Counted from the first letter of the stretch, positions 1,653 to 15,290 are shown. The stretch: 16,416 bases of DNA from Promethearchaeota archaeon Loki_b32 (GCA_005223125.1 NJBH01000055.1:1-16416), one strand, 5' to 3'. The notes: generated by a model not told the origin, from the sequence alone. A program made the numbers and translations.

Positions 1653-2708
1653 ATGACAACAGAGGTAAAAACTTTAGAAGATGTACGCAATATTGCTAGA
1701 GAAAAACTAAAAGGAATATGTGGAGTCTACAAAGATTGTGATGGAGATCCACGTAGACTTTGCCAAGGACAAGGCTATGGAAGATCTCTTGGTATTGGAG
1801 GAATTGGAAGTGGTGCCAGTTTTAATAATAATTTCTTAGCCCTAAGAAAATATAATTTGAAAATGAAATTAATTAATAAAGATTTTACATCTGATACTAA
1901 ATATAATTTCTTTGGGAAAGAATTATCCATGCCAATAATGGCTGCGAGTGTGGCAGGTGTTAATAGCTTTGGTGGAGATAAGGTTATAACAGAAGAAGAA
2001 TTTTGTCGTTCTGTAGTTCTTGGCTGTAGAGATGCAGAAACAATTGGGTGGAGAGGGGATACTTATACTTATTCATTTGAAAATTCTTATGGACTTAATG
2101 CTATTGCTGAAGCGGGAGGTTGGGGAGTCAAAATTGTGAAACCAAGAGACCAAGGAACAATAATGAAATTTTTTAATAAAGCTGAAGAAGTTAGATGTGT
2201 TTCTGTTGGTATAGATGTAGATGGTTGTGGTTCATATGCAATGGCTATGCATAATAAACCAGTTTTCAAAAAATCAATTGAAGAAATTAAGGAATTAATT
2301 TCTTCTACAAATCTTCCAGTAATTATTAAAGGGATAATGTGCGTTGAAGATGCTTTAATAGCAAAAGAAGCAGGAGCAGCAGCTATCGTTGTATCAAATC
2401 ATGGGGGAAGAGTTTTAGATCATACTCCTGGAACAGCTGAAGTTTTATCTAGAATTGTAGAAGAAACTAAAGGAAAGATTAAAATTATCGTTGATGGAGG
2501 TATCCGGACGGGATATGATGTGTTAAAAATGCTTGCACTTGGGGCTGAATCAGTTCTGATTGGTCGAGACATTATTCGGGCTTCAGTCGGAGCAGGAATT
2601 AAAGGCGTCCAGATACATATGGAATATATGCAAAAGACTTTGGCAAAGGCAATGAAAATGACGAATTGTAAGTCTTTAGAAGAAGTAACTTCAGATATTT
2701 TAGTTTAA
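1653..2708 (+). CDS. FMN-dependent alpha-hydroxy-acid oxidase/dehydrogenase (lactate/glycolate oxidase family) with N-terminal Cys motif
   Basis: Catalytic SNHGGR motif, PVIIKGI and DGGIRTGYDVLKMLALGA FMN motifs. Starts 16 nt after the fumC stop, with SD-like GAGGT at 1642-1646, so probably co-transcribed. Confidence 0.9.
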   Translation: MTTEVKTLEDVRNIAREKLKGICGVYKDCDGDPRRLCQGQGYGRSLGIGGIGSGASFNNNFLALRKYNLKMKLINKDFTSDTKYNFFGKELSMPIMAASVAGVNSFGGDKVITEEEFCRSVVLGCRDAETIGWRGDTYTYSFENSYGLNAIAEAGGWGVKIVKPRDQGTIMKFFNKAEEVRCVSVGIDVDGCGSYAMAMHNKPVFKKSIEEIKELISSTNLPVIIKGIMCVEDALIAKEAGAAAIVVSNHGGRVLDHTPGTAEVLSRIVEETKGKIKIIVDGGIRTGYDVLKMLALGAESVLIGRDIIRASVGAGIKGVQIHMEYMQKTLAKAMKMTNCKSLEEVTSDILV

Positions 2709-2742
2709 ACAATAATTGTTTTATATGAAAAATATAATGTTT

Positions 2743-2811
2743 TCCCAGCACCCTTGCAAGGCAGTCATTATGTACCTATCCTTTATGCACATAAATCATT
2801 CTTTTCTGGGA
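2743..2811 (-). promoter_or_regulatory. Eukaryote-type SECIS element in the 3' UTR of the selenoprotein gene
   Basis: Minus-strand RNA reads UCCCAG-AAAAGA-AUGAU-UUAUGUGC-AUAAAGGAUAG-GUACAUAA-UGAC-UGCCUUGCAAGGGUG-CUGGGA. This gives helix I (UCCCAG/CUGGGA), an AUGAU/UGAC core with tandem G.A pairs, an 8-bp helix II and an apical loop containing AAA. It begins 6 nt after the TAG. Folded by eye. Confidence 0.85.
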
Positions 2812-2817
2812 TAAAGA

Positions 2818-3333
2818 CTATAAATATTTGTTTATTGCTTCAATTATCAATTCTATTGATGGTCTATCTTCTTTTGTACCAATATATTGCCAAACTACAT
2901 GTCCTCCTTTATTGATGAGAAACTTAGAAGGTATTGCATGGCTTATTTGCAATTCATCATGCCCAGCACTTTTTCTGTCCAAGAAGACATGATAAGCTTT
3001 ACTTAATCTTCCAGCACGATCAGTGATAAATTGTATTTTAAAATTATTCTTATATTTCATCTTTATTAACTTATCAGGGAGATCTATAGCAATTGCAATT
3101 AGTTTAATATTTAATTCTTTTAATTTTGATAAATTTTCAGTCAAGTATGCAAGATGTCTTTTACAGTGGATTCACCAACTTCCTCTGAAAAAATCAAGTA
3201 AAACTCCATTATATTTTTCTAATAATCTAATTAAATTAACCTTATCGCCATCAATATCTTCTGTGTCAATCATTGGAGCTTTAGTACCTAATTGTAAACC
3301 TTTATTCGGAGTTGAAATATGTAAGTCGGTCAT
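2818..3333 (-). CDS. Peroxiredoxin-like (AhpC/TSA, thioredoxin-fold) selenoprotein, 171 aa, Sec at codon 54 (TGA at 3172-3174) in a UxxC motif
   Basis: Manual translation from ATG 3333: MTDLHISTPNKGLQLGTKAPMIDTEDIDGDKVNLIRLLEKYNGVLLDFFRGSW-U-IHCKRHLAYLTENLSKLKELNIKLIAIAID...AIPSKFLINKGGHVVWQYIG. It runs in frame into the supplied 2818..3144 ORF, and the TGA sits at the first Cys position of the FxRGxWCxxC motif. Confidence 0.9.
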
Positions 3334-3481
3334 AAATGAATTATTAATTTTTAATAATTTAAAGAATTAGTTTTTAGATCATAATTTTTAATTCATTCTT
3401 AGGAATCATAAGTTTTATATTTTAATGGGATGTAATATCAAATTAATTAGTAATAAAGTCCTTTTATAAAGATGCTTAAAT

Positions 3482-5464
3482 ATGAAGGATATCTCTAAAT
3501 TTATTGATGATGTACTAAATGAAGTTAGTGGAAAATATGCCTTTGATTGGGTATCGAAGATATCGCAATATAATCGAGTTGTAGGGTCCCAAGATTATCA
3601 TGAAATTATAGAAAGAGTAATGAAAGAATTGGTATCTTATGGTTTAGATGAGATTAAACTCCATAAATACCCTGCAGATGGAAAGACTAAAACATGGGAA
3701 TGGATAGTAACTCAAAGTTGGGAGATTACATCAGGGGAATTAAGCTTAATAGAGCCAAAAAAAGAAATCTTATGTCGATTTCAGGATATTCCTATGTGTG
3801 TTTTAGGAAGATCAAAGGGTTGTGATTTGACCGCAGAGTTAATAGACGTTGGGAAAGGTGTTAAAGAAGAAGAATTTGAAGGATTAGATGTTGAAGGTAA
3901 AATTATTTTAATAGAAGCTCCAAGAATCATAGTTCCTACATTATATGCAGAAAAAGGAGCATTAGGAGTTATAGTATATCCCAGTTCAGTTCGAGCGGGA
4001 GGTAACAAAGGCATGACTATTTATAATAGGTTTCCTGCTATAGCTGAAGATTTAGAAAAAACAACTTTTGGTTTTAGTATTACTTTTGAGCAAGGATTGT
4101 ACTTAAAAGAATTGTTAAAAAAGGGACCTGTTAAGCTATATGCTAAGATTGACGCTAAAATTTATGATGGAGAATTAGAAGTAATTTCTGCCGCTATTCG
4201 AGGGACAGAAAAACCTCATGAAGAGATTATTCTAACAGCGCATATTTGTCACCCTGCTGCGGGAGTAAACGATAATGCTAGTGGATCCGCAGGATTGTTA
4301 GAATTAGCACGTTCACTTACAGCACTCATAAAGCAAAACATATTGCAACCCCCTAAACGGACAATAAGATTTCTTTGGGTTCCTGAGTTTCATGGAACAT
4401 TTCCTTGGGTTAAGGAACACGAACATATTGTTAAGAATGCACTTTTTAACATTAATTTAGATATGATAGGGGAACACCCCTTAAAAATTGGGAATCCCTG
4501 TTATATTTGTCTTGGACCTTATTCAAGACCTTCAATTTTAAATGATATAATTCAATATTTCACGAGGATAATAGCAGATCACCCTAAGGGTGTAGCAATA
4601 AATGGCACACAAATGCAGATGCGATATCGGATAGTTCCCTATTCAGGTGGGAGCGATCATGGTGTATTTGTAGCGCGACCTATAGGCATTCCTGGTATTA
4701 TGATTGGACATGAAGATCCCTTTTGGCATAGTTCCCTTGACACAATAGAAAAGTGTGATTCTACAGAATTAAAGCGTGTAATTGCTATTGCTCTTTGCAC
4801 TAGTTATATCTTTTCAATACAAAATAAGGATACTTTAATATCTATATGGCCAATTATAGAAGGAATTTTTTACCAGCGACTTGGTAAAGCAAAAGAAATG
4901 ATACTCTCTCTTTATAACAAACTCAATCAAGAAACTACAACATCTTTAATTTCAAAAGATGAAATTACTTTAATGGGAAAAACTCTAATAAATACATTTG
5001 TCAATTATGAAAAATCCATATTGGATTCAGTAAAACAACTTGATTCATTATCACCAATAATTGAAGAGTTATTTTTTGAAAAAGTTAAAGAATTAGAAGA
5101 ATTAAAGAAAAATCTTTTCTCTTACTGGAATAAATTATGTAAACATGCGTCTATTGACATTAATCTTATTGAAGAACCAGATCATTTTAAACAAAAATGG
5201 GTTTTAAATTTTGTAGGGAGAAGGAATTTGAAATATTTTATACCAATTCTACTCTCAAGTGTGTATGAGAAGTTCAAAGTTCCAGAACCACCAGATGTTT
5301 GGGGAGGTGATGCCCAAGAAATGATAAATTTTATAGGATTATCTTTAAGTCTTAAGGAGATCTGTGCTATATTAACTTTAGAGTTTCAACATTTATTTTA
5401 TCCAAGTATAGTTCTTAATTTTGCGAAATTATTAGAAGAAAATGGCTTTATGAAAAAAGCTTAA
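3482..5464 (+). CDS. M28-family metallopeptidase with PA domain (DUF4910-like) and helical C-terminal extension
   Basis: TAHICH, GVNDNASG, WVPE, INLDMIG, GGSDH and WHSSLDT motifs, plus a PA-like insert (DVGKG...DVEGKIILI...GALGVIVY). Confidence 0.8.
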   Translation: MKDISKFIDDVLNEVSGKYAFDWVSKISQYNRVVGSQDYHEIIERVMKELVSYGLDEIKLHKYPADGKTKTWEWIVTQSWEITSGELSLIEPKKEILCRFQDIPMCVLGRSKGCDLTAELIDVGKGVKEEEFEGLDVEGKIILIEAPRIIVPTLYAEKGALGVIVYPSSVRAGGNKGMTIYNRFPAIAEDLEKTTFGFSITFEQGLYLKELLKKGPVKLYAKIDAKIYDGELEVISAAIRGTEKPHEEIILTAHICHPAAGVNDNASGSAGLLELARSLTALIKQNILQPPKRTIRFLWVPEFHGTFPWVKEHEHIVKNALFNINLDMIGEHPLKIGNPCYICLGPYSRPSILNDIIQYFTRIIADHPKGVAINGTQMQMRYRIVPYSGGSDHGVFVARPIGIPGIMIGHEDPFWHSSLDTIEKCDSTELKRVIAIALCTSYIFSIQNKDTLISIWPIIEGIFYQRLGKAKEMILSLYNKLNQETTTSLISKDEITLMGKTLINTFVNYEKSILDSVKQLDSLSPIIEELFFEKVKELEELKKNLFSYWNKLCKHASIDINLIEEPDHFKQKWVLNFVGRRNLKYFIPILLSSVYEKFKVPEPPDVWGGDAQEMINFIGLSLSLKEICAILTLEFQHLFYPSIVLNFAKLLEENGFMKKA

Positions 5465-5583
5465 TAAAGCCATGTAATTAAGTCTTTATCTATCTTTTAT
5501 TAATGATTTAAAAGCCTAAGAGTTAAATATCAACTTCATTTACTTTTAGGTAAATTTAAGATTTCACAAATTTGGAATTGAAA

Positions 5584-6846
5584 ATGAATAGAGAAATTAA
5601 AAATTGTGAGACGCCAGATATTTTTGTATGTGAGGATTATATAGAAGAAGAACCTAAACTCTGCGAGCTTGATAATTCTAAAACTTATAAAGGATTAGTT
5701 GGAATATACGTTGATAAAAGCCTGATTACTTATATTGGTGGAATAAAAGGAGAATTATATTATCGGGGTTATCCTTTACACAATTTAGTTGAAAATTCAT
5801 CTTTTGAAGAAGTTGCGTATCTTCTAATTTATGGTAAGTTACCAACTAGATCAGAATTAGATTCTTTTAAAGATGAATTAATTAAGGAACGAAACATACC
5901 AGACAACATTTTATCAATTTTAAAGAGTTTTCCAAGAAATACAACAAGAATTGAATTATTAAGAACCTCAATATCAGCATTATCTCTTTATGATCCTGAC
6001 GATTATGACTTTTCTGAAGAAGCTAATATAAGAAAAGGATTAAGAATAATTGCTAAGATTCCAACGGTTTTAGCTTTTTCTCATAGGATTCAAGGTAATT
6101 TACCTTTAATTGAGCCTTCTGAAGAACTCTCTCATGCATGTAATTATTATTATATGATGACAGGAGAGGTACCTAATAATGAATTTACTCGATTTTTTGA
6201 TAAAATATTGATATGTCATATGGATCACTCAATAAATAGTAGTACTTTTTCTTGTCGGGTTACTGTATCTACATTGTCAGATATTTATAGTGGAATAACT
6301 AGTGCTATTGGAACACTTCGAGGACCTCTTCATGGAGGAGCTAATGAAAGAGTGATAAACTTAATGTTAGGTGAAATAAAGAAAAAAGAAAATATTATTC
6401 CATGGGCTAAAAATAAGCTTGAAAAAAAAGAGAAAATTATGGGTTTTGGACATCGCGTGTATAAAACATGGGACCCCCGTGCTAAAATATTACGAGAAAT
6501 ATCAAGAACATTATGGAATAATCCTGATATTATAGAAAAGATACCAGATATCGAACATGAAGAGCATAAAGGTGAAATTGATAATATATTCGAAATGACT
6601 GAAATACTTGCTGAATATATGATTAAAACTAAAAATATTTATCCAAACGTAGATCTGTATTCCGCTGGGGCTTTACATGCATTAGGTGTACCCACAGCTT
6701 TATTTACACCCCTGTTTGCTGCTTCGCGTTGTGCAGGCTGGGTTGCTCATGCTATAGAGCAATTTTCGGATAATAAACTTATAAGGCCACGACTCCGATA
6801 TATTGGTGAATTAGATAAAAACTATATCAAAATTGCTGAGAGATAA
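5584..6846 (+). CDS. Citrate synthase (archaeal/Gram-positive type); 2-methylcitrate synthase not excluded
   Basis: KGL, GELYYRGY, HMDHSINSSTF, GPLHGGANE, MGFGHRVYK, DPRA, YPNVD and IRPR motifs. ATG 5584 is preferred over TTG 5572, but the start is uncertain. Confidence 0.92.
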   Translation: MNREIKNCETPDIFVCEDYIEEEPKLCELDNSKTYKGLVGIYVDKSLITYIGGIKGELYYRGYPLHNLVENSSFEEVAYLLIYGKLPTRSELDSFKDELIKERNIPDNILSILKSFPRNTTRIELLRTSISALSLYDPDDYDFSEEANIRKGLRIIAKIPTVLAFSHRIQGNLPLIEPSEELSHACNYYYMMTGEVPNNEFTRFFDKILICHMDHSINSSTFSCRVTVSTLSDIYSGITSAIGTLRGPLHGGANERVINLMLGEIKKKENIIPWAKNKLEKKEKIMGFGHRVYKTWDPRAKILREISRTLWNNPDIIEKIPDIEHEEHKGEIDNIFEMTEILAEYMIKTKNIYPNVDLYSAGALHALGVPTALFTPLFAASRCAGWVAHAIEQFSDNKLIRPRLRYIGELDKNYIKIAER

Positions 6847-6849
6847 GTA

Positions 6850-9528
6850 GTGAAAAATATAGATGAGTTAGAAATTAAATCAAGAGTTAAAGAAACATTA
6901 GACTCGAAATTAGGAGAAATTTCAATTTTTAACATTCAAAAATTAAGAGATTTAGATTTAGGAGATCCAAATAAATTACCATATTCTCATAGAATTTTAC
7001 TTGAAAATCTTTTACGAAATTTAGACGGTAAACGCGTTAAAATAGATCATCTTCTTTCGATTTGTCAATGGGATTGTAAAAGTACAATTATGAGTGAAAT
7101 ACCATATATCCCCTCAAGAGTATTACTTCAAGATTTTACGGGAGTACCTTCTGTAGTAGATTTAGCAGCTTTAAGATCAGCTATGAAGAGAGCCGGTAGA
7201 GATCCATCCAAAATCAATCCCAAAATTCCAGTAGATTTAGTTATCGATCATTCTATACAAGTAGATTATTATGGAACTAAAGATGCTATTAAGTTAAACG
7301 AAAAAAAGGAAATGGAACGTAATCGAGAACGTTATACTCTCTTGAAATGGGCACAAGAAATATTTCAAAATTTTAGAGTGGTTCCTACTAGTCGAGGAAT
7401 TTGTCATCAAATAAATTTAGAATACCTAGCTTCAGTTGTTCACATTCAAGATATAAATGGTGAATTAATTGGATTTCCTGATACTTTAGTTGGAACTGAT
7501 TCTCATACCACGATGATAAATGGTTTAGCAGTATTAGGGTGGGGTGTAGGAGGCATTGAAGCTGAAGCAGTTATCTTAGGACAACCTTACTATATGAATA
7601 TTCCCAAAGTTGTAGGTGCAAAACTAATAGGGGAAGTCAAAGAAGGAATAACCGCAACTGATATAGTATTACATATTACACAAATTCTTAGAAAACATGG
7701 AGTTGTTGGTAAATTTGTAGAATTTTATGGTCCTAGTTTAAATAAGTTATGTCTTGCAGATAGAGCAACCATTGCAAACATGTCTCCTGAATATGGCGCT
7801 ACAATGGGATTTTTCCCTATTACTGATGAGACATTAAAGTATTTGAGAGATAGTGGAAGAAAAGAAGACCGTGTGGATTTTGTGGAACAATATGCTAAAA
7901 AAGTCGGACTTTTTTATAATGACAACGCCCCAACACCTGATTATAGTGAAAATATAGAAATAAATCTAAATGAGGTTGAAACTAACTTAGCTGGTCCAAA
8001 ACGACCTCAGGATCGAATTCCACTAAGTAAAATGAAGAATACTTTTACTGATCATATGAAATCTGTATTTAATAAAAATGATGAACTTGAAAAAATATCT
8101 GATGGAAAAAATTTAAGTCATGGTTCAATTGTAATTGCTGCTATTACATCCTGTACTAATACTTCAAATCCATCTGTAATGATTGGAGCTGGACTTTTAG
8201 CGAGGAATGCTGTTAAAAAAGGCCTAAAAGTCAAAAACTATGTTAAAACTAGTTTTGCGCCAGGATCTCGGGTTGTAATAGATTATATAAATGATGCTGG
8301 ATTGATGCCCTATTTAGAAGAATTAGGCTTTAATTTAGTAGGTTATGGTTGTACAACATGTATAGGAAATAGTGGTCCTTTAAATGAAGATTTTGTTCAA
8401 GAGATTGAAACTAAAGATTTAATTGCTGCAGCTGTCTTAAGTGGTAATCGAAATTTTGAAGGGCGAATAAGTCCCTATGTGAAGGCAAATTATTTAGCTT
8501 CTCCACCTTTAGTTGTCGCCTTTGCTTTAGCAGGTACCGTTGCAATTAATATGGAACAAGATCCATTAGGTTTTAGTCCAGATGGGTCTCCTGTTTATTT
8601 AAAAGAAATATGGCCAAGTTCTAAAGAAATTGCTGATTTAAGTGAGAAATATGTGTTACCAAAATTATTTCGTAAGGAATATGGAGAAATCTTCAAAGGT
8701 TGGGACTTGTGGAATGATCTCAAACCTCCAAAGAAGGAAATTTATCATTGGGAAGAAGACTCAACATATATTAGAGAACCACCTTTTTTTAAAGATTTTC
8801 GATTAGAGTTACCCCTTTTAGAAGATATAAGGGGGTCAAGAGTTTTAGCCTTATTAGGAGACTCGGTTACGACTGATCATATATCACCTGCAGGTGCAAT
8901 ACCAGAAGATATGCCTGCTGGGAAATATTTGATCTCAAAAGAAATAGAAGTGAATGATTTTAATTCTTTTGGTTCAAGACGAGGAAACCATGAAGTTATG
9001 ATGCGTGGAACATTTGGAAACATTAGAATAAGAAATAAATTAGTTAATAATGAAGGGGGATGGACTAGAAACTTTCTATCTGATGAAATTGTTCCTTTAT
9101 ATGATGCAGCTCAGGATTATATTTCAAATGAAGTTCTTTTAATTGCTCTGGCCGGTAAAGATTATGGTATGGGAAGTTCTCGAGACTGGGCTGCGAAAGG
9201 TACGCAACTTTTAGGCGTTAAAGCAGTCATTGCTGAATCTTTTGAACGTATTCATAGAAATAATTTAGTAGGCATGGGAGTATTACCATTACAATTCAAA
9301 AAAGGTGATACTCCAGAAACTTTAGGATTAGATGGAACTGAAACTTATAGTATTATGGGAATTAAAGACATAACTCCTTTCTCTGAGCTTAAAATTATTG
9401 CTAAAAGTAAAAATGGTAAAGAAATCATTTTTAATACAATAGCACGTCTAGATAGCAACGTTGATATAGAATATTATCAAAATGGTGGCATCTTGCATAC
9501 AGTTTTACGAAAAATGTTAGAAGAATAA
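6850..9528 (+). CDS. acnA: Aconitate hydratase A (AcnA/IRP1 family)
   Basis: 892 aa with LQDFTGVP, DLVIDHS, GTDSHT, the [4Fe-4S] Cys motifs AAITSCTNTSN and GYGCTTCIGNSG, TTDHISPAG and GSSRDWAAKG. GTG start lies 3 nt after the citrate synthase stop. Confidence 0.96.
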   Translation: MKNIDELEIKSRVKETLDSKLGEISIFNIQKLRDLDLGDPNKLPYSHRILLENLLRNLDGKRVKIDHLLSICQWDCKSTIMSEIPYIPSRVLLQDFTGVPSVVDLAALRSAMKRAGRDPSKINPKIPVDLVIDHSIQVDYYGTKDAIKLNEKKEMERNRERYTLLKWAQEIFQNFRVVPTSRGICHQINLEYLASVVHIQDINGELIGFPDTLVGTDSHTTMINGLAVLGWGVGGIEAEAVILGQPYYMNIPKVVGAKLIGEVKEGITATDIVLHITQILRKHGVVGKFVEFYGPSLNKLCLADRATIANMSPEYGATMGFFPITDETLKYLRDSGRKEDRVDFVEQYAKKVGLFYNDNAPTPDYSENIEINLNEVETNLAGPKRPQDRIPLSKMKNTFTDHMKSVFNKNDELEKISDGKNLSHGSIVIAAITSCTNTSNPSVMIGAGLLARNAVKKGLKVKNYVKTSFAPGSRVVIDYINDAGLMPYLEELGFNLVGYGCTTCIGNSGPLNEDFVQEIETKDLIAAAVLSGNRNFEGRISPYVKANYLASPPLVVAFALAGTVAINMEQDPLGFSPDGSPVYLKEIWPSSKEIADLSEKYVLPKLFRKEYGEIFKGWDLWNDLKPPKKEIYHWEEDSTYIREPPFFKDFRLELPLLEDIRGSRVLALLGDSVTTDHISPAGAIPEDMPAGKYLISKEIEVNDFNSFGSRRGNHEVMMRGTFGNIRIRNKLVNNEGGWTRNFLSDEIVPLYDAAQDYISNEVLLIALAGKDYGMGSSRDWAAKGTQLLGVKAVIAESFERIHRNNLVGMGVLPLQFKKGDTPETLGLDGTETYSIMGIKDITPFSELKIIAKSKNGKEIIFNTIARLDSNVDIEYYQNGGILHTVLRKMLEE

Positions 9529-9541
9529 AAACATAGAATTC

Positions 9542-9558
9542 TCTTATTTTTTATTTTT
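9542..9558 (+). terminator. Possible archaeal oligo-T terminator after acnA
   Basis: TCTTATTTTTTATTTTT shortly after the acnA stop. The AT-rich background lowers specificity. Confidence 0.35.
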
Positions 9559-9617
9559 AGGCTCTTCGATCTTTGCTAAAAATTGAATTTTCAGCTTATT
9601 TTCTCCTTTCTAATCGC

Positions 9618-9630
9618 AAACGTTTAAAAA
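9618..9630 (+). promoter_or_regulatory. Possible BRE/TATA promoter for the gelsolin-like gene pair
   Basis: AAACGTTTAAAAA about 45 nt upstream of ATG 9676, resembling an archaeal purine-rich BRE followed by a TTTAAA box. Confidence 0.35.
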
Positions 9631-9675
9631 CAAATTCTTTAACTATTTTGTTATAAGGTATAAAGATGAAGAAAA

Positions 9676-11298
9676 ATGGTTGAAAGTGTTATTAAAACCT
9701 TCAAGTTAAATTATGACGGAACTTTTGATGAGATAGCTTATGAAAACATTAAAGATGTTTTTACTATTGTTAATATCTTAGCTATCTATATCCAAAAAAT
9801 AAAAACAATGTATATTTGGATAGGACGAAATGCAACTCAAGCTTTAAAAAACCATGTAGCCCGAATTCGGGTAATATTGAAAGAAGAGTTCCCTCAGTTT
9901 AGAATTATTAGAAATATTACTTTTGATATGAGATCTGAGACATATGATTTCTTCAAGAACTTAAATATTACTAAAGAGGAATTATATGAAGTTATCAATT
10001 ATCAAGAAAAAACAGTACTTCCAGTGTTAGAGAAAATTGATGAATTAAAAGAGAAATCCGAAAAATCTATAGAATCTAAACAATATAAGAGCGCAATTGA
10101 ATTATTGAAGGAAATAATTGGATTAGCAGAAAAAATACAAGATGATGCTCTTGTAACAGAACAAAAAAGGTTAATATCAAAGTTAACTGAAAAATTTGAG
10201 AATCATCAGATTGTCTCTGAAATTGAACAGGAAACAGATAGAGTTGAAAAAGAATATATCGAGTTAATTAAAGCTAAAAGGATATTAAATGCTCATGAGT
10301 TTGTCGAAGCCTTCATAAAAAAATATGAAACGGTTTATGATCTATCACTAATACCAAGTGCTAAAGAATTAATATTAAAAGAAAAAAAGAAGTGGAACGC
10401 AGAACAAGAAAAAATAATAAACGATCTTTCAATATTGGAAAAAAATTTTAAATTATCTTTAGAAAACTTGGATATTTCAGAAGCAACTGAGATTTATGAA
10501 AAAGCAATGAATCTATTTTCTAATTTAATTGGAGAAAAAATTAAGAATAAATGGAAAGGATTTAGTAATAACATCCAAGAAGCAAAAAATAAATTGGAAT
10601 TTATAAAAAAATTCGATTCTTTTTCTGGAAAAATAAAAAATTTGAAGGAAACACATCAATACAACGAATTAAAATCAAAAATTGAGAATTTAATAAAACA
10701 AGTTGAACAATTAGATCTTCCGGAGTATCGTGGTAAATTAGATATGTTAAATAAAGAAGTCGATTCTGTTGAAGAGTCATATAATAGGATATTAGAAGAA
10801 ATAAGACATTTAGAAGAACAAATAATTGATAATCAAAAAAATAACCAATTTGAAAAAAATCTAAGAGACTGTAAGAAAATCGTCGAATTAGGTAAATCAA
10901 TAAATAAATCTGAATTAATCAAAAATTATACAACTATTTTGGAGCAAACTAAGGAGCAAATCAAAAACAGAAAAGAGTTTGAAGAAAAACAAATATTCTT
11001 GAAAGAAGAACTCACTAAATTAGAAAAAAGATTCACATCATCTATTAAAACCATGAAGATTAAAAATATCAACGAAATTCTTGAAAAAGGAGAGGAATTC
11101 CTTAATGAGCTAGTAGATGATGAAATTAAGGAGAAATGGGATAACTTTAAGGCCAAATCTCATTCTGCTAAGCAATTATTAGAAAAGGTAGAAATGTTAA
11201 GTAAAAATGGAATGGATGCTCTAAATAAAGGCTCTAGTCCGGATTCTCTAAATTTTTTTGAACAAATAATACATCAATTACAAGAATATAAAAGTTAG
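9676..11298 (+). CDS. Gelsolin-like domain protein with C-terminal alpha-helical repeat/coiled-coil region
   Basis: Residues ~1-98 have the gelsolin pattern (hydrophobic strand, MYIWIGRNAT, long helix, strand, SETYDFF). Residues ~115-540 are K/E-rich, with about seven helical units. Confidence 0.7.
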   Translation: MVESVIKTFKLNYDGTFDEIAYENIKDVFTIVNILAIYIQKIKTMYIWIGRNATQALKNHVARIRVILKEEFPQFRIIRNITFDMRSETYDFFKNLNITKEELYEVINYQEKTVLPVLEKIDELKEKSEKSIESKQYKSAIELLKEIIGLAEKIQDDALVTEQKRLISKLTEKFENHQIVSEIEQETDRVEKEYIELIKAKRILNAHEFVEAFIKKYETVYDLSLIPSAKELILKEKKKWNAEQEKIINDLSILEKNFKLSLENLDISEATEIYEKAMNLFSNLIGEKIKNKWKGFSNNIQEAKNKLEFIKKFDSFSGKIKNLKETHQYNELKSKIENLIKQVEQLDLPEYRGKLDMLNKEVDSVEESYNRILEEIRHLEEQIIDNQKNNQFEKNLRDCKKIVELGKSINKSELIKNYTTILEQTKEQIKNRKEFEEKQIFLKEELTKLEKRFTSSIKTMKIKNINEILEKGEEFLNELVDDEIKEKWDNFKAKSHSAKQLLEKVEMLSKNGMDALNKGSSPDSLNFFEQIIHQLQEYKS

Positions 11299-11316
11299 AT
11301 AATAGGAGTGAAAATA

Positions 11317-12315
11317 ATGACAGAAGAACAATCAGAAGAAACTGGGGTACAAAAAGAGAAAGAAGAAAAAAGAAAAATAAGAGTAGTTGAGCAAATTGAT
11401 GATCGTCTGGCTATTCAAGGTCAAGCATACATGAAAGGCCAATTAAAAGAAGCCGTATCTCTTGCTTATGAAATAATTGAATTAGCTAAACCTGAAGGAA
11501 TGAAATCGTTTATTAAAGAACAAGAGGAATTAATCGCCAGAATTAAGAAGATATTAAAAGAAAAGGAAGAAAGAGAAAGAGTAAGAATTAGAGTTGAACA
11601 AGAAAAATTAAGGCTTGAGAGAATTAAGAAATTAAAGATAGAGTTAAGTCAACTGGAAAGGGAGTTTAATATAGCTCTAAAGAAAGAAGACTTTCTGAAC
11701 ACTGAAGAAGTATTAGAAAATGCCAAGAATCTGCTCACTAAGCTTGATGATGAGAAATTAAAAACAAAATGGGAGGAACTTAAGAATCGAGCTGTAAAAA
11801 CGAAAATTAAAAAAGAATTAATAGTAAAAGCAGAGAAATTAATAGAAGAGAGTATCGATTTAAAAGAAAAATACCTCTTTGATGACCTAAAATTAAAATT
11901 AACAGATTTATTAGAACAGCTAAAAGATAATGAAATTGACGATTATTATAAAGAAATCAAAGCAATACAGTCAGATATTTTAAATGCTGAAAAAACCTAT
12001 TCAAAAACTGTAGAAAAAATTGAGGGATTAGTGAAGAAGGTTGGCAATTTTCAAGATGAGAAGAAATACAAAAATGCAATCTCAAATTGTGAAGAACTTA
12101 TTCAACATGCTGAATCAATAAAAAAAATTGATTTGGTTGAAGTTTATTCAAAACTTTTAATAAATCTCCAAGAAGACCTTAAATTTGAAGAACTTAAAGA
12201 TTCAGTACGGAAACTAAATGAGGAAAGTTTATTTTTATTGAGAAAAGGCGAAATTATTGCTTCCCTTGATAAATTCAAAATTATTCAAAAATCTTTGAAA
12301 CAATATAAAAAATAA
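11317..12315 (+). CDS. Alpha-helical repeat protein, paralog of the C-terminal region of the upstream gene
   Basis: Collinear similarity to the upstream protein (see findings). ATG 11317 is preferred over GTG 11308 because SD-like GGAGTG (11305-11310) lies 6 nt upstream. Confidence 0.75.
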   Translation: MTEEQSEETGVQKEKEEKRKIRVVEQIDDRLAIQGQAYMKGQLKEAVSLAYEIIELAKPEGMKSFIKEQEELIARIKKILKEKEERERVRIRVEQEKLRLERIKKLKIELSQLEREFNIALKKEDFLNTEEVLENAKNLLTKLDDEKLKTKWEELKNRAVKTKIKKELIVKAEKLIEESIDLKEKYLFDDLKLKLTDLLEQLKDNEIDDYYKEIKAIQSDILNAEKTYSKTVEKIEGLVKKVGNFQDEKKYKNAISNCEELIQHAESIKKIDLVEVYSKLLINLQEDLKFEELKDSVRKLNEESLFLLRKGEIIASLDKFKIIQKSLKQYKK

Positions 12316-13162: not shown

Positions 13163-15088
13163 TTAAGCGTGTTTTTGTTTAATAAGAGTTAACTTCCCGC
13201 CAGCCATTAATTCTTTTAAGCCTTGATCACTTAGAGAATGGGTCAGCTCGATATCTATATTTTTTGTTGTGTTTTTTAATGAAACTTTGCCAGTTTTAAT
13301 AGTAGTTAAATCAATCTCAAATTGATCTCCAGCATCAATTTTATTATAATCTTCTTTATTTACAAAGGTAAGAGGTACTATCCCAAAATTTAATAAATTA
13401 GCTAAATGAATACGTGCAAAACTTTTTACTATTACAGCTTTGATTCCGAGATATTTAGGTGCTATTGCGGCATGTTCACGACTTGACCCTTGTCCATAAT
13501 TCTCGCCTCCTACAATAAATCCCCCTCCCTTTTCAAGAGATCTATCATGAAAGGATTCATCAACTACATTGAAGACAAATTTGCTGATCTCAGGAATATT
13601 ACTCCTGAATGGCAATATTTTAGCTCCAGCGGGCAAAATGTGATCTGTTGTTATATCATCCTCAACTTTTAGAAGAGCTTCTCCTTCTAATTTATTAGGT
13701 AAAGGATTAAATTCTGGTAAAGGCTTAATATTTGGACCTCTGACAATTTCTATATTTTTAGCCTCTTCAGGGGGTAATGGTGGCACTATCAAGTTATCAT
13801 TGACATTAAACATTTTAGGCATTTCTAATTTGGGTAATTTACCATACTTTCTTGGATCTGTAATTTTTCCTTCAATAGCAGCTATAGCTGCGGTTTCAGG
13901 ACTCACCAAGTAAGCGTTAGCACTTTTAGTACCTGATCTTCCAAGGAAGTTTCTATTGAAAGTTCTTAAAGAAACAGCATCACTTTTAGGTGCTAACCCT
14001 TGACCTAAACAAGGTCCACAGGCATTTTCTAATATCCTTGCCCCAGCTTTTACTAAATAACCCATTTCACCGGATTCTATCATGTGATCTACTACTTGTC
14101 GAGAACCAGGAGATACAGTTAAAACCGTATTTAGGTTTACAGTTTTCCCTTTTAACATGTTTGCAGCTATTTTGAGATCTCTTAACGATGAATTAGTACA
14201 ACTCCCGATGCAAACTTGATCTACATTTAATCCTTCTAATTCTTTAACAGTTTTAACATTGCCAGGACTATGAGGTTCAGCTATCAATGGTTCTAATTCA
14301 CTTAAATTAATTTCGATCGTTTCATCATATTCAGCATCATCGTCAGGTTCTAATTGAATCCATTGATCTCCTCTTTCTTGAGCTTCTAAAAATTCTTTAG
14401 TAATCTCATCAGAAGGAAAGATTGATGTGGTTGCTCCAGTTTCAGTTCCCATATTTGTTATTGTTCCTCTTTCTGGAACAGTTAATGTTTTTATTCCTGG
14501 GCCAACATATTCTAAAACTTTATTGACTGCTCCCTTCACTCCTATTCTTCTTAAAACCTCTAATATTACATCTTTAGCAGATACAAAATCTGGAAGTTTT
14601 CCTGTAATATACACTTTAACAACTTTTGGCATTTTAAGACGGAATGATTCACCCGCCATTGCAGCTGCAACATCGAGACCTCCTGCTCCAATTGAAATTG
14701 ACCCTACACCTCCTCCAGTAGGAGTATGACTATCACTACCTAATAATGTTCTACCGGGGCGAGCAAACCTTTCAAGATGAACTTGATGACAAATACCATT
14801 TCCGGGTCGAGAGAAATATAAACCATATTTTGCTGCGATACTTTGAAGATAACGATGGTCATCGGGGTTCTTAAAGTCAGTTTGTAATGTGTTATGATCA
14901 ACATAGCTTACTGATAATTCAGTTTGAACTCGTGAAACTCCCATTGCTTCAAATTGCAAATAAGCCATGGTGCCTGTGGCGTCTTGTGTTAACGTCTGGT
15001 CTATTTTAATCGCAATATCAGTACCTTTTTCTATGTTTCCTTCAACTAAATGTTGTTCTATTATTTTTTCAGTTAAAGTTTTTCCCAT
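13163..15088 (-). CDS. Short (~640 aa) single-chain aconitate hydratase, putative 'Aquifex-type' aconitase family
   Basis: QDATGT, YVDHN, GICHQVH, GSDSHT, Cys ligands IGSCTNSS and ACGPCLG, TTDHI and GSSREHAA. ATG 15088 is preferred over TTG 15097. Confidence 0.92.
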   Translation of the reverse strand: MGKTLTEKIIEQHLVEGNIEKGTDIAIKIDQTLTQDATGTMAYLQFEAMGVSRVQTELSVSYVDHNTLQTDFKNPDDHRYLQSIAAKYGLYFSRPGNGICHQVHLERFARPGRTLLGSDSHTPTGGGVGSISIGAGGLDVAAAMAGESFRLKMPKVVKVYITGKLPDFVSAKDVILEVLRRIGVKGAVNKVLEYVGPGIKTLTVPERGTITNMGTETGATTSIFPSDEITKEFLEAQERGDQWIQLEPDDDAEYDETIEINLSELEPLIAEPHSPGNVKTVKELEGLNVDQVCIGSCTNSSLRDLKIAANMLKGKTVNLNTVLTVSPGSRQVVDHMIESGEMGYLVKAGARILENACGPCLGQGLAPKSDAVSLRTFNRNFLGRSGTKSANAYLVSPETAAIAAIEGKITDPRKYGKLPKLEMPKMFNVNDNLIVPPLPPEEAKNIEIVRGPNIKPLPEFNPLPNKLEGEALLKVEDDITTDHILPAGAKILPFRSNIPEISKFVFNVVDESFHDRSLEKGGGFIVGGENYGQGSSREHAAIAPKYLGIKAVIVKSFARIHLANLLNFGIVPLTFVNKEDYNKIDAGDQFEIDLTTIKTGKVSLKNTTKNIDIELTHSLSDQGLKELMAGGKLTLIKQKHA

Positions 15089-15290
15089 TTTTTTCAACTA
15101 TATTTTTAATTATAACATTTCTGGATAAAATAGATACTAAAGTAATTAAAATTGAAATCTTATTAAAATTTACTTTTAGAATCTTCCCATTTTTATCCCT
15201 ATTAACGGCTTTCTAATTAATTAGGTTTAACTATTTAAATTTTGAATGATTTTCCAAATTAAATTTCTTTTCTTTTAAGAGATAATTAAA

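Follow-up and report, generated by a model that had tools for sequence, protein, structure and literature searches.

The window analyzed here, the whole 16,416-nt contig NJBH01000055.1 (assembly GCA_005223125.1, Promethearchaeota archaeon Loki_b32), is a 16.4-kb contig of a 4.1-Mb metagenome-assembled genome (MAG) of an Asgard archaeon of the Loki type. It carries two adjacent genes, designated A and B, whose products are, judged by sequence comparison, collinear paralogs. Protein A (540 aa) combines a head of the gelsolin fold with a long helical rod, and protein B (332 aa) is a related rod without the head. The pair represents a real, conserved, and undescribed two-gene unit among the Asgard gelsolin-domain proteins, and its function is one that we infer. 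We are highly confident of the anatomy of this unit, namely the paralogy of the two proteins, the gelsolin fold, the predicted chain of helical bundles, the adjacency of the genes, their joint presence or absence, and the single origin of the headless lineage. The best overall explanation, which we put forward tentatively and rate a little short of probable, is that an operon encodes a gelsolin-headed rod and a headless rod, which would together form an actin-linked hetero-oligomer.

The paralogy was first noticed by eye. The first-pass annotation of this DNA had claimed that B matched A module by module and at the C-termini, that B lacked the head and two of the modules, and that 18 nt separated the two genes. 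Composition-adjusted BLASTP aligned residues 110–449 of A with residues 19–303 of B (25% identity, E 1e-14), and every segment pair listed in the annotation fell inside this alignment. Since both proteins are rich in K, E, L, and I, shuffled and reversed controls were included. The real score was 61.2 bits, compared with 16.4 ± 2.2 bits (maximum 23.5) for residue shuffles, 17.6 ± 2.6 bits (maximum 28.1) for shuffles of 7-residue blocks, and 16.9 bits for the reversed sequence. A comparison of the two ortholog sets as hidden Markov models with hhalign gave a probability of 99.94% (E 7.9e-37), with residues 4–332 of B collinear with residues 98–540 of A and with two deletions in B, at approximately A181–243 and A433–494. 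The similarity was thus significant in both the pairwise comparison (61.2 against ~17 bits in the controls) and the profile comparison, and the C-termini were also paired by hhalign (A495–540 with B291–332). The absence of two modules from B agreed with the two deletions and with the number of short helices in the structural models (seven in A, five in B). The 18-nt distance was confirmed for a start of B at ATG 11317, which was preferred over the alternative GTG 11308 because the homologs of B begin at the equivalent Met.

The head of A and the rods of both proteins

Structural models were obtained with AlphaFold2 (AF2), using a 56-sequence alignment as the input for A; the mean predicted local distance difference test (pLDDT) values were 88.7 for A and 90.0 for B. 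In the model of A, residues 1–96 formed an alpha/beta domain. Its best Foldseek match was Thor ProGel (7c2f_B; TM-target 0.81, root-mean-square deviation (rmsd) 2.6 Å, 90 columns), followed by dozens of fragmin, gelsolin, villin, and adseverin domains, and all of the Foldseek rows listed belonged to the gelsolin family with the exception of three weak whole-chain matches to helical-repeat proteins (7rdr_A, 7dhg_C, and 5a7d_C). A head profile (A4, twelve diverse heads) matched 7c2f_B over its full length with E 3.4e-5, Loki 2DGel with E 1.1e-4, and adseverin with E 6e-4; the single head sequence gave a weak match to the solved gelsolin domains (E 0.17). The predicted fold and the profile matches together identify the head as a gelsolin-homology domain, in line with the reading of the first-pass annotation.

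The head carries the motif YIWIG at residues 46–50 and is the most conserved part of A (consensus fraction 0.84). At the same time, it is divergent from Pfam Gelsolin, to which A had no match at E ≤ 1. This divergence explains the “hypothetical protein” labels of the family, and domain-based censuses may miss such proteins for the same reason. By analogy with related proteins, the head most likely binds the actin of the host (Lokiactin). Proteins with gelsolin domains from Asgard archaea have been shown to bind actin and to regulate it in vitro (PMC7444086), and four actin-family genes were found in the host genome, the best of them (G000:C38:37918-39030) scoring 440.9 bits. Furthermore, the near-invariance of the head points to a highly conserved ligand, for which actin is the obvious candidate.

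The best profile match among solved structures, ProGel (7C2F chain B; PMC7444086), has the same single gelsolin/cofilin-type fold as the head of A. However, ProGel is a stand-alone protein of ~90 aa, whereas in A the domain is followed by a 430-residue rod, and the identity between the two is ~20%. The combination of a single N-terminal gelsolin domain with a non-gelsolin extension X is an architecture that A has in common with the Asgard 1DGelX/GelX proteins. In Lokiarchaeota, two gelsolin+X proteins have been counted in MK-D1 and three in GC14_75 (PMC9433394). Thor_GelX severs actin in vitro in a calcium-independent manner (PMC7444086). For Thor_GelX and for B35_GelX of L. ossiferum (bioRxiv 10.1101/2025.11.30.690169), the published descriptions of X are of a predicted coiled coil or of a disordered region with a long linker. 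By these descriptions, the X of A appears to differ from the published ones, since it is predicted to be an ordered chain of seven three-helix bundles (pLDDT ~90). No mention of a headless partner gene was found in the published GelX papers, nor of the A–B pair or of a mini-bundle rod in the literature searched, which agrees with the earlier impression that no described system matches this one. A is therefore a member of the loose 1DGelX/GelX class whose ordered rod and headless partner are undescribed.

Two other gelsolin+X open reading frames (ORFs) were found in the host genome, one of 362 aa (L036 2732–3820, minus strand, G000:C10) and one of 297 aa (L037 2134–3027, plus strand, G000:C18). 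Their extensions differ and are unrelated to the rod of A. In the 362-aa ORF, reading by eye showed a long linker of low complexity and, at the C-terminus, a small segment rich in helices; this ORF looks closer to the published GelX layout than A does.

The rod of A comprises ~430 residues with a period of ~62 residues. In the AF2 model, long helices (34–47 aa) strictly alternate with short helices (16–19 aa) seven times, and the model of B contains five short helices and one 60-residue helix (63–122) at the site of an absent module. Because of this alternation and the superposition of the modules, each bundle can be regarded as built from the last part of a long helix, the short helix behind it, and the first part of the long helix that follows. 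The rod is accordingly modeled as a chain of three-helix bundles with shared long connecting helices, seven in A and five in B. In an exhaustive structural search, single modules (B104–164 and B230–290) superposed on whole solved three-helix bundles with an rmsd of 1.0–1.6 Å, and among these matches were both MIT domains and bundles designed de novo. The sole solved chain that spanned most of the B rod at a moderate rmsd was the plakin four-spectrin-repeat structure 3r6n_B (Z 9.5, 268 residues, rmsd 9.5 Å); all structural Z values for the rod were within the chance range for helical repeats, and these comparisons describe the architecture without establishing homology.

Profile comparison of the modules points clearly to an internal duplication in the rod of A: modules 3 and 6 matched with an hhalign probability of 99.4% (E 6e-22), and modules 1 and 5 with a probability of 80.6%. 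The 737-aa orthologs of A contain one extra block of ~197 aa, equal to three modules. Module 1 is the best conserved rod module of A (0.70 vs 0.55–0.62 for the others). In B, module 1 likewise has the highest conservation (0.73), and 10 of the 17 columns that are invariant across the B family lie within it. This B-type N-terminal module marks headless proteins in every length class.

Pfam gave nothing significant for A and B, and the same was true of sets of 56 and 38 family members and of eight long relatives (983–1417 aa). The ESM Atlas search yielded nothing usable (best score 0.88, clusters without names). Foldseek aligned B with the TPR proteins LGN and Rap, and Pfam TPR_2 matches occurred in 4/56 and 4/38 family members; the Foldseek matches were local only (rmsd ~25–45 Å) and were not accepted as a global fold assignment for B. 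A WH2-like motif considered by eye in the N-terminus of B was dropped, since its spacing does not fit.

Distribution, gene order, and phylogeny of the pair

Orthologs of A with a fixed length of 540 aa and orthologs of B with a length of 317–337 aa were present in many MAGs of Lokiarchaeia/Promethearchaeota, and in at least 10 MAGs the two had neighboring NCBI locus tags. When A was used in an exhaustive search, 178 relatives of 80–1417 aa were retrieved, some with and some without a head. In a sample of 151 Asgard genomes, matches to the rod were confined to 17/25 genomes of the window’s own GTDB family and 2/2 genomes of the sister family of the same order; elsewhere the matches were weak and mostly covered the head alone. 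In L. ossiferum, an 867-aa headed ORF (L031) had a different tail and no rod match, and the recovered locus contained no partner gene.

Loci were examined from four genera of the window’s GTDB family and from the genome collection. At 17 further loci and in 2 genomes of the same genus, the gene directly behind a headed one, on the same strand, was headless, so that the conservation of the pair, which the first-pass annotation had proposed to check by synteny, is supported. The gaps between the two genes ranged from −8 to +127 nt and were often 0–2 nt. The lengths of the headed and headless partners (in aa) included 540/332, 737/328, 350/378, 434/597, 302/670, 567/806, 643/686, and 775/695; matched partner lengths, looked for as a sign of lateral pairing, were not found.

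Five genomes of the family had neither A nor B. Within the genus of the window, the gene order in genome G150 is M28 peptidase–A–B–methyltransferase, and in genome G049 the M28 peptidase gene lies beside the methyltransferase gene, with no A or B anywhere. Because of the joint absence in five genomes and this clean two-gene indel, we conclude that the pair is gained or lost as a unit.

On the phylogenetic tree of the first modules, 34/35 headless proteins formed one group (SH-aLRT, a Shimodaira–Hasegawa-like branch test, 90), and the headed/headless label changed 2 times, compared with 28 for shuffled labels. The alignment comprised 76 columns, and the deep branching of the tree is weak owing to this short length. 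The tree indicates that the headless lineage is essentially one clade with a single origin, and it supports an old duplication of A and B, as had been supposed from the sequence of the window.

Several further observations concern the relatives of the pair. A solitary paralog of ~180 aa, which matches only the first two rod modules of A (A116–244), was present in 8 genomes of genus g4 and in G150, nine of the family in total (for example, G150:C199:2743-3201, G099:C1:64221-64652, and G121:C7:10994-11380) and was not found in the host genome. Short headless proteins of comparable size (114–243 aa) formed a subclade within the headless clade of the first-module tree. At locus L004 (G144:C8), the headed protein of 775 aa (3792–6119) and the headless protein of 695 aa (1677–3764) shared 43% identity over 627 residues. 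These partners are far more alike than those of the window (25%), with a similarity on the level of orthologs from different genera, which points to gene conversion between the tandem partners or to a parallel expansion of their modules. In addition, some headed proteins (L026 3986–5689; P0241, P0249, and P0256) carry a second, B-type first module in cis after their own, and the downstream 806-aa partner in L026 (5736–8156) is without that B-type first module. From this arrangement, the two types of first module may work side by side.

Proposed role of the pair and competing explanations

The 18-nt gap and the Shine–Dalgarno (SD)-like motif preceding B are the signs of an operon in the window, and the gaps at other loci (−8 to +127 nt, several of 0–2 nt) point the same way; A and B are thus predicted to constitute a two-gene operon. 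Under the explanation that we favor, the two proteins would be made together from this operon and would contact each other by way of the first and the last rod modules, which are the best conserved, while the variable middle of the rod would act to space them. Such a hetero-oligomeric scaffold would bring gelsolin heads to actin filaments, which it could tether, cross-link, or locally sever or cap. That the two chains meet through their end modules is suggested by the tight coupling of the genes, their conserved order and joint loss, and the conservation of the terminal modules combined with variable middles. Actin binding, the A–B contact, and the scaffold role are the parts of this model that we infer, and we consider the scaffold mechanism as a whole to be possible rather than probable.

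A number of observations weigh against it. The partner lengths are not matched across genomes, which makes full-length lateral pairing unlikely. A and B were each modeled confidently as a single chain, and neither therefore requires a partner in order to bury its core. In the sister family f2, headed proteins of 775–914 aa occur without a headless neighbor (L032 and L033), and locus L024 contains two headed genes in tandem (108–2324 and 2339–4420) and no headed–headless pair. More generally, complex formation is only one of the reasons for which tandem paralogs may remain neighbors. As for the head, 0/56 family members matched Pfam Gelsolin at E ≤ 0.01, and no actin binding is known for the gelsolin-like domain found in Sec23 (PMC7444086), so that the fold itself is no guarantee of actin binding. 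The first-pass annotation had also offered a filament as one possible form of the A–B assembly, and no support for this reading was found.

The mismatch of partner lengths would fit competition better than a fixed heterodimer, and it leads to an alternative that the first-pass annotation had already raised, in which B is a competitor or decoy. B would hold the site bound by the rod of A, on the side of the filament or on another anchor, and, having no head, would tune the recruitment of heads. B indeed keeps the first and last rod modules and is without the head, and Akil et al. proposed an actin side-binding element in the extension of the Thor gelsolin+X protein (PMC7444086). However, the tight coupling of the genes (gaps of 0–18 nt) suggests that the two are produced in a roughly fixed ratio, under which titration would be a poor means of regulation, and the first-module clades of A and B have long been distinct, so that their binding specificities have probably diverged. 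On balance, we regard a decoy role of B as unlikely.

It also seems improbable that A and B are independent, with their adjacency a relic of tandem duplication and B having a rod or scaffold role of its own, unrelated to A or to actin. Across four genera, the genes kept their order, their strand, and a spacing close to zero despite large length changes, and the joint presence and absence of the genes, including the clean two-gene indel between genomes of the same genus, is difficult to reconcile with such independence. This possibility does draw on the ability of both proteins to fold alone, on an identity that is down to 25%, on the headed genes that stand alone in some lineages (L032 and L033), and on the existence of the solitary ~180-aa paralog.

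The modules also resemble in size the three-helix MIT domains of VPS4, katanin p60, and MITD1 and the tandem MIT domains of calpain-7, on which they superposed with an rmsd of 1.4–1.6 Å; in contrast to these, the modules of A and B are below the Pfam threshold, are fused via shared helices into a rod, and have no link to the endosomal sorting complex required for transport (ESCRT) in the gene neighborhood. A rod of MIT-like peptide-binding bundles that recruits helical motifs (e.g., ESCRT-III-type tails) to the ligand of the head, with actin secondary or irrelevant, is very unlikely: apart from the superpositions (katanin p60 5lb7_B, rmsd 1.4 Å over 67 residues; MITD1 4a5x_B; VPS4A 2jq9) and a weak Pfam MIT match at A264–312 (E 0.0012), which at 19.3 bits is below the 30-bit cut-off and recurs at E ≤ 0.01 in only 2/56 members, the Z values of 9–10 are no higher than chance can produce among helical bundles, bundles designed de novo match just as well, and no ESCRT genes were found near the pair.

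If the actin-linked scaffold is accepted as the working explanation, its nearest counterparts are the rods of spectrin, alpha-actinin, and plakin, which on paper share with A and B an actin-binding head (presumed in A) and three-helix bundles joined by continuous helices (predicted in both). Spectrin, moreover, consists of paralogous chains of which only beta carries the actin-binding domain. However, the repeat of the spectrin rods is ~106 residues compared with ~62 in A and B, their head consists of CH domains and that of A of a gelsolin domain, and the Pfam spectrin repeat had no match in A, in B, or in the 56 and 38 family members. The likeness is therefore treated as an analogy and not as membership. 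Taken further, the analogy would mean that Lokiarchaeia own an actin-linking rod system of the spectrin/alpha-actinin kind, in which headed and headless chains join via their end modules; this we consider doubtful. Equally doubtful is the extension of this reading, in which spacers of lineage-specific length would cross-link or tether Lokiactin, and the combination of an actin-binding head with a rod of three-helix repeats, split over headed and headless paralogs, would have arisen before, or independently of, eukaryotes.

No regulators of actin other than profilins and gelsolins are known from Asgard archaea, and no Asgard actin cross-linker, spacer, or tether is known so far. The putative A–B operon provides a cloneable candidate for this missing class. 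Loki-type cells in culture crawl and form protrusions filled with actin (PMC13716822). If the two chains do pair on actin, they would constitute a prokaryotic counterpart to the spectrin/alpha-actinin principle; otherwise, the proteins still represent a large, undescribed, lineage-specific family of helical repeats with an unusual mini-bundle rod.

Features of the window and genomic context

The features of the A–B unit are listed in Table 1. In the intergenic region upstream of A, reading by eye revealed TTTAAAAA at 9623–9630 and TTATAA at 9651–9656, and this region is the probable promoter of the unit.

Table 1. Coordinates of the A–B unit and its parts in the 16,416-nt window.
Feature	Position	Strand	Basis or remark
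Upstream of gene A, AT-rich intergenic region, probable promoter of the two-gene unit	9529–9675	+	147-nt gap after the aconitase gene
Gene A, gelsolin head and rod, 540 aa	9676–11298	+	ORF; stop TAG 11296–11298
Head of A, gelsolin-homology domain, residues 1–100	9676–9975	+	Fold and profile match
A rod module 1, residues 101–176	9976–10203	+	Aligns with the conserved N-terminal module of B
A rod modules 2–7, residues 177–540	10204–11295	+	Helix pattern in the AF2 model
A–B spacer, 18 nt	11299–11316	+	SD-like GGAGTG at 11305–11310, 6 nt before the ATG of B
Gene B, headless rod paralog, 332 aa	11317–12315	+	ORF; homologs 317–337 aa
B conserved module 1, residues 21–92	11377–11592	+	Conservation peak of B

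The neighborhood of the pair consists of genes of the tricarboxylic acid cycle, an M28 peptidase gene, and a methyltransferase gene. In the window, it offers no functional context for A and B, and no ESCRT genes are located there. The pair is flanked by an 892-aa aconitase (6850–9528) and a 644-aa aconitase-family gene (13163–15097), which lie on opposite strands and share ~25% identity. The A–B locus is a rearrangement hot spot; the M28 peptidase gene abuts A in G150 and the methyltransferase gene in G049. In this genome only, the citrate synthase and 892-aa aconitase genes (5572–9528) separate the M28 peptidase gene from A.

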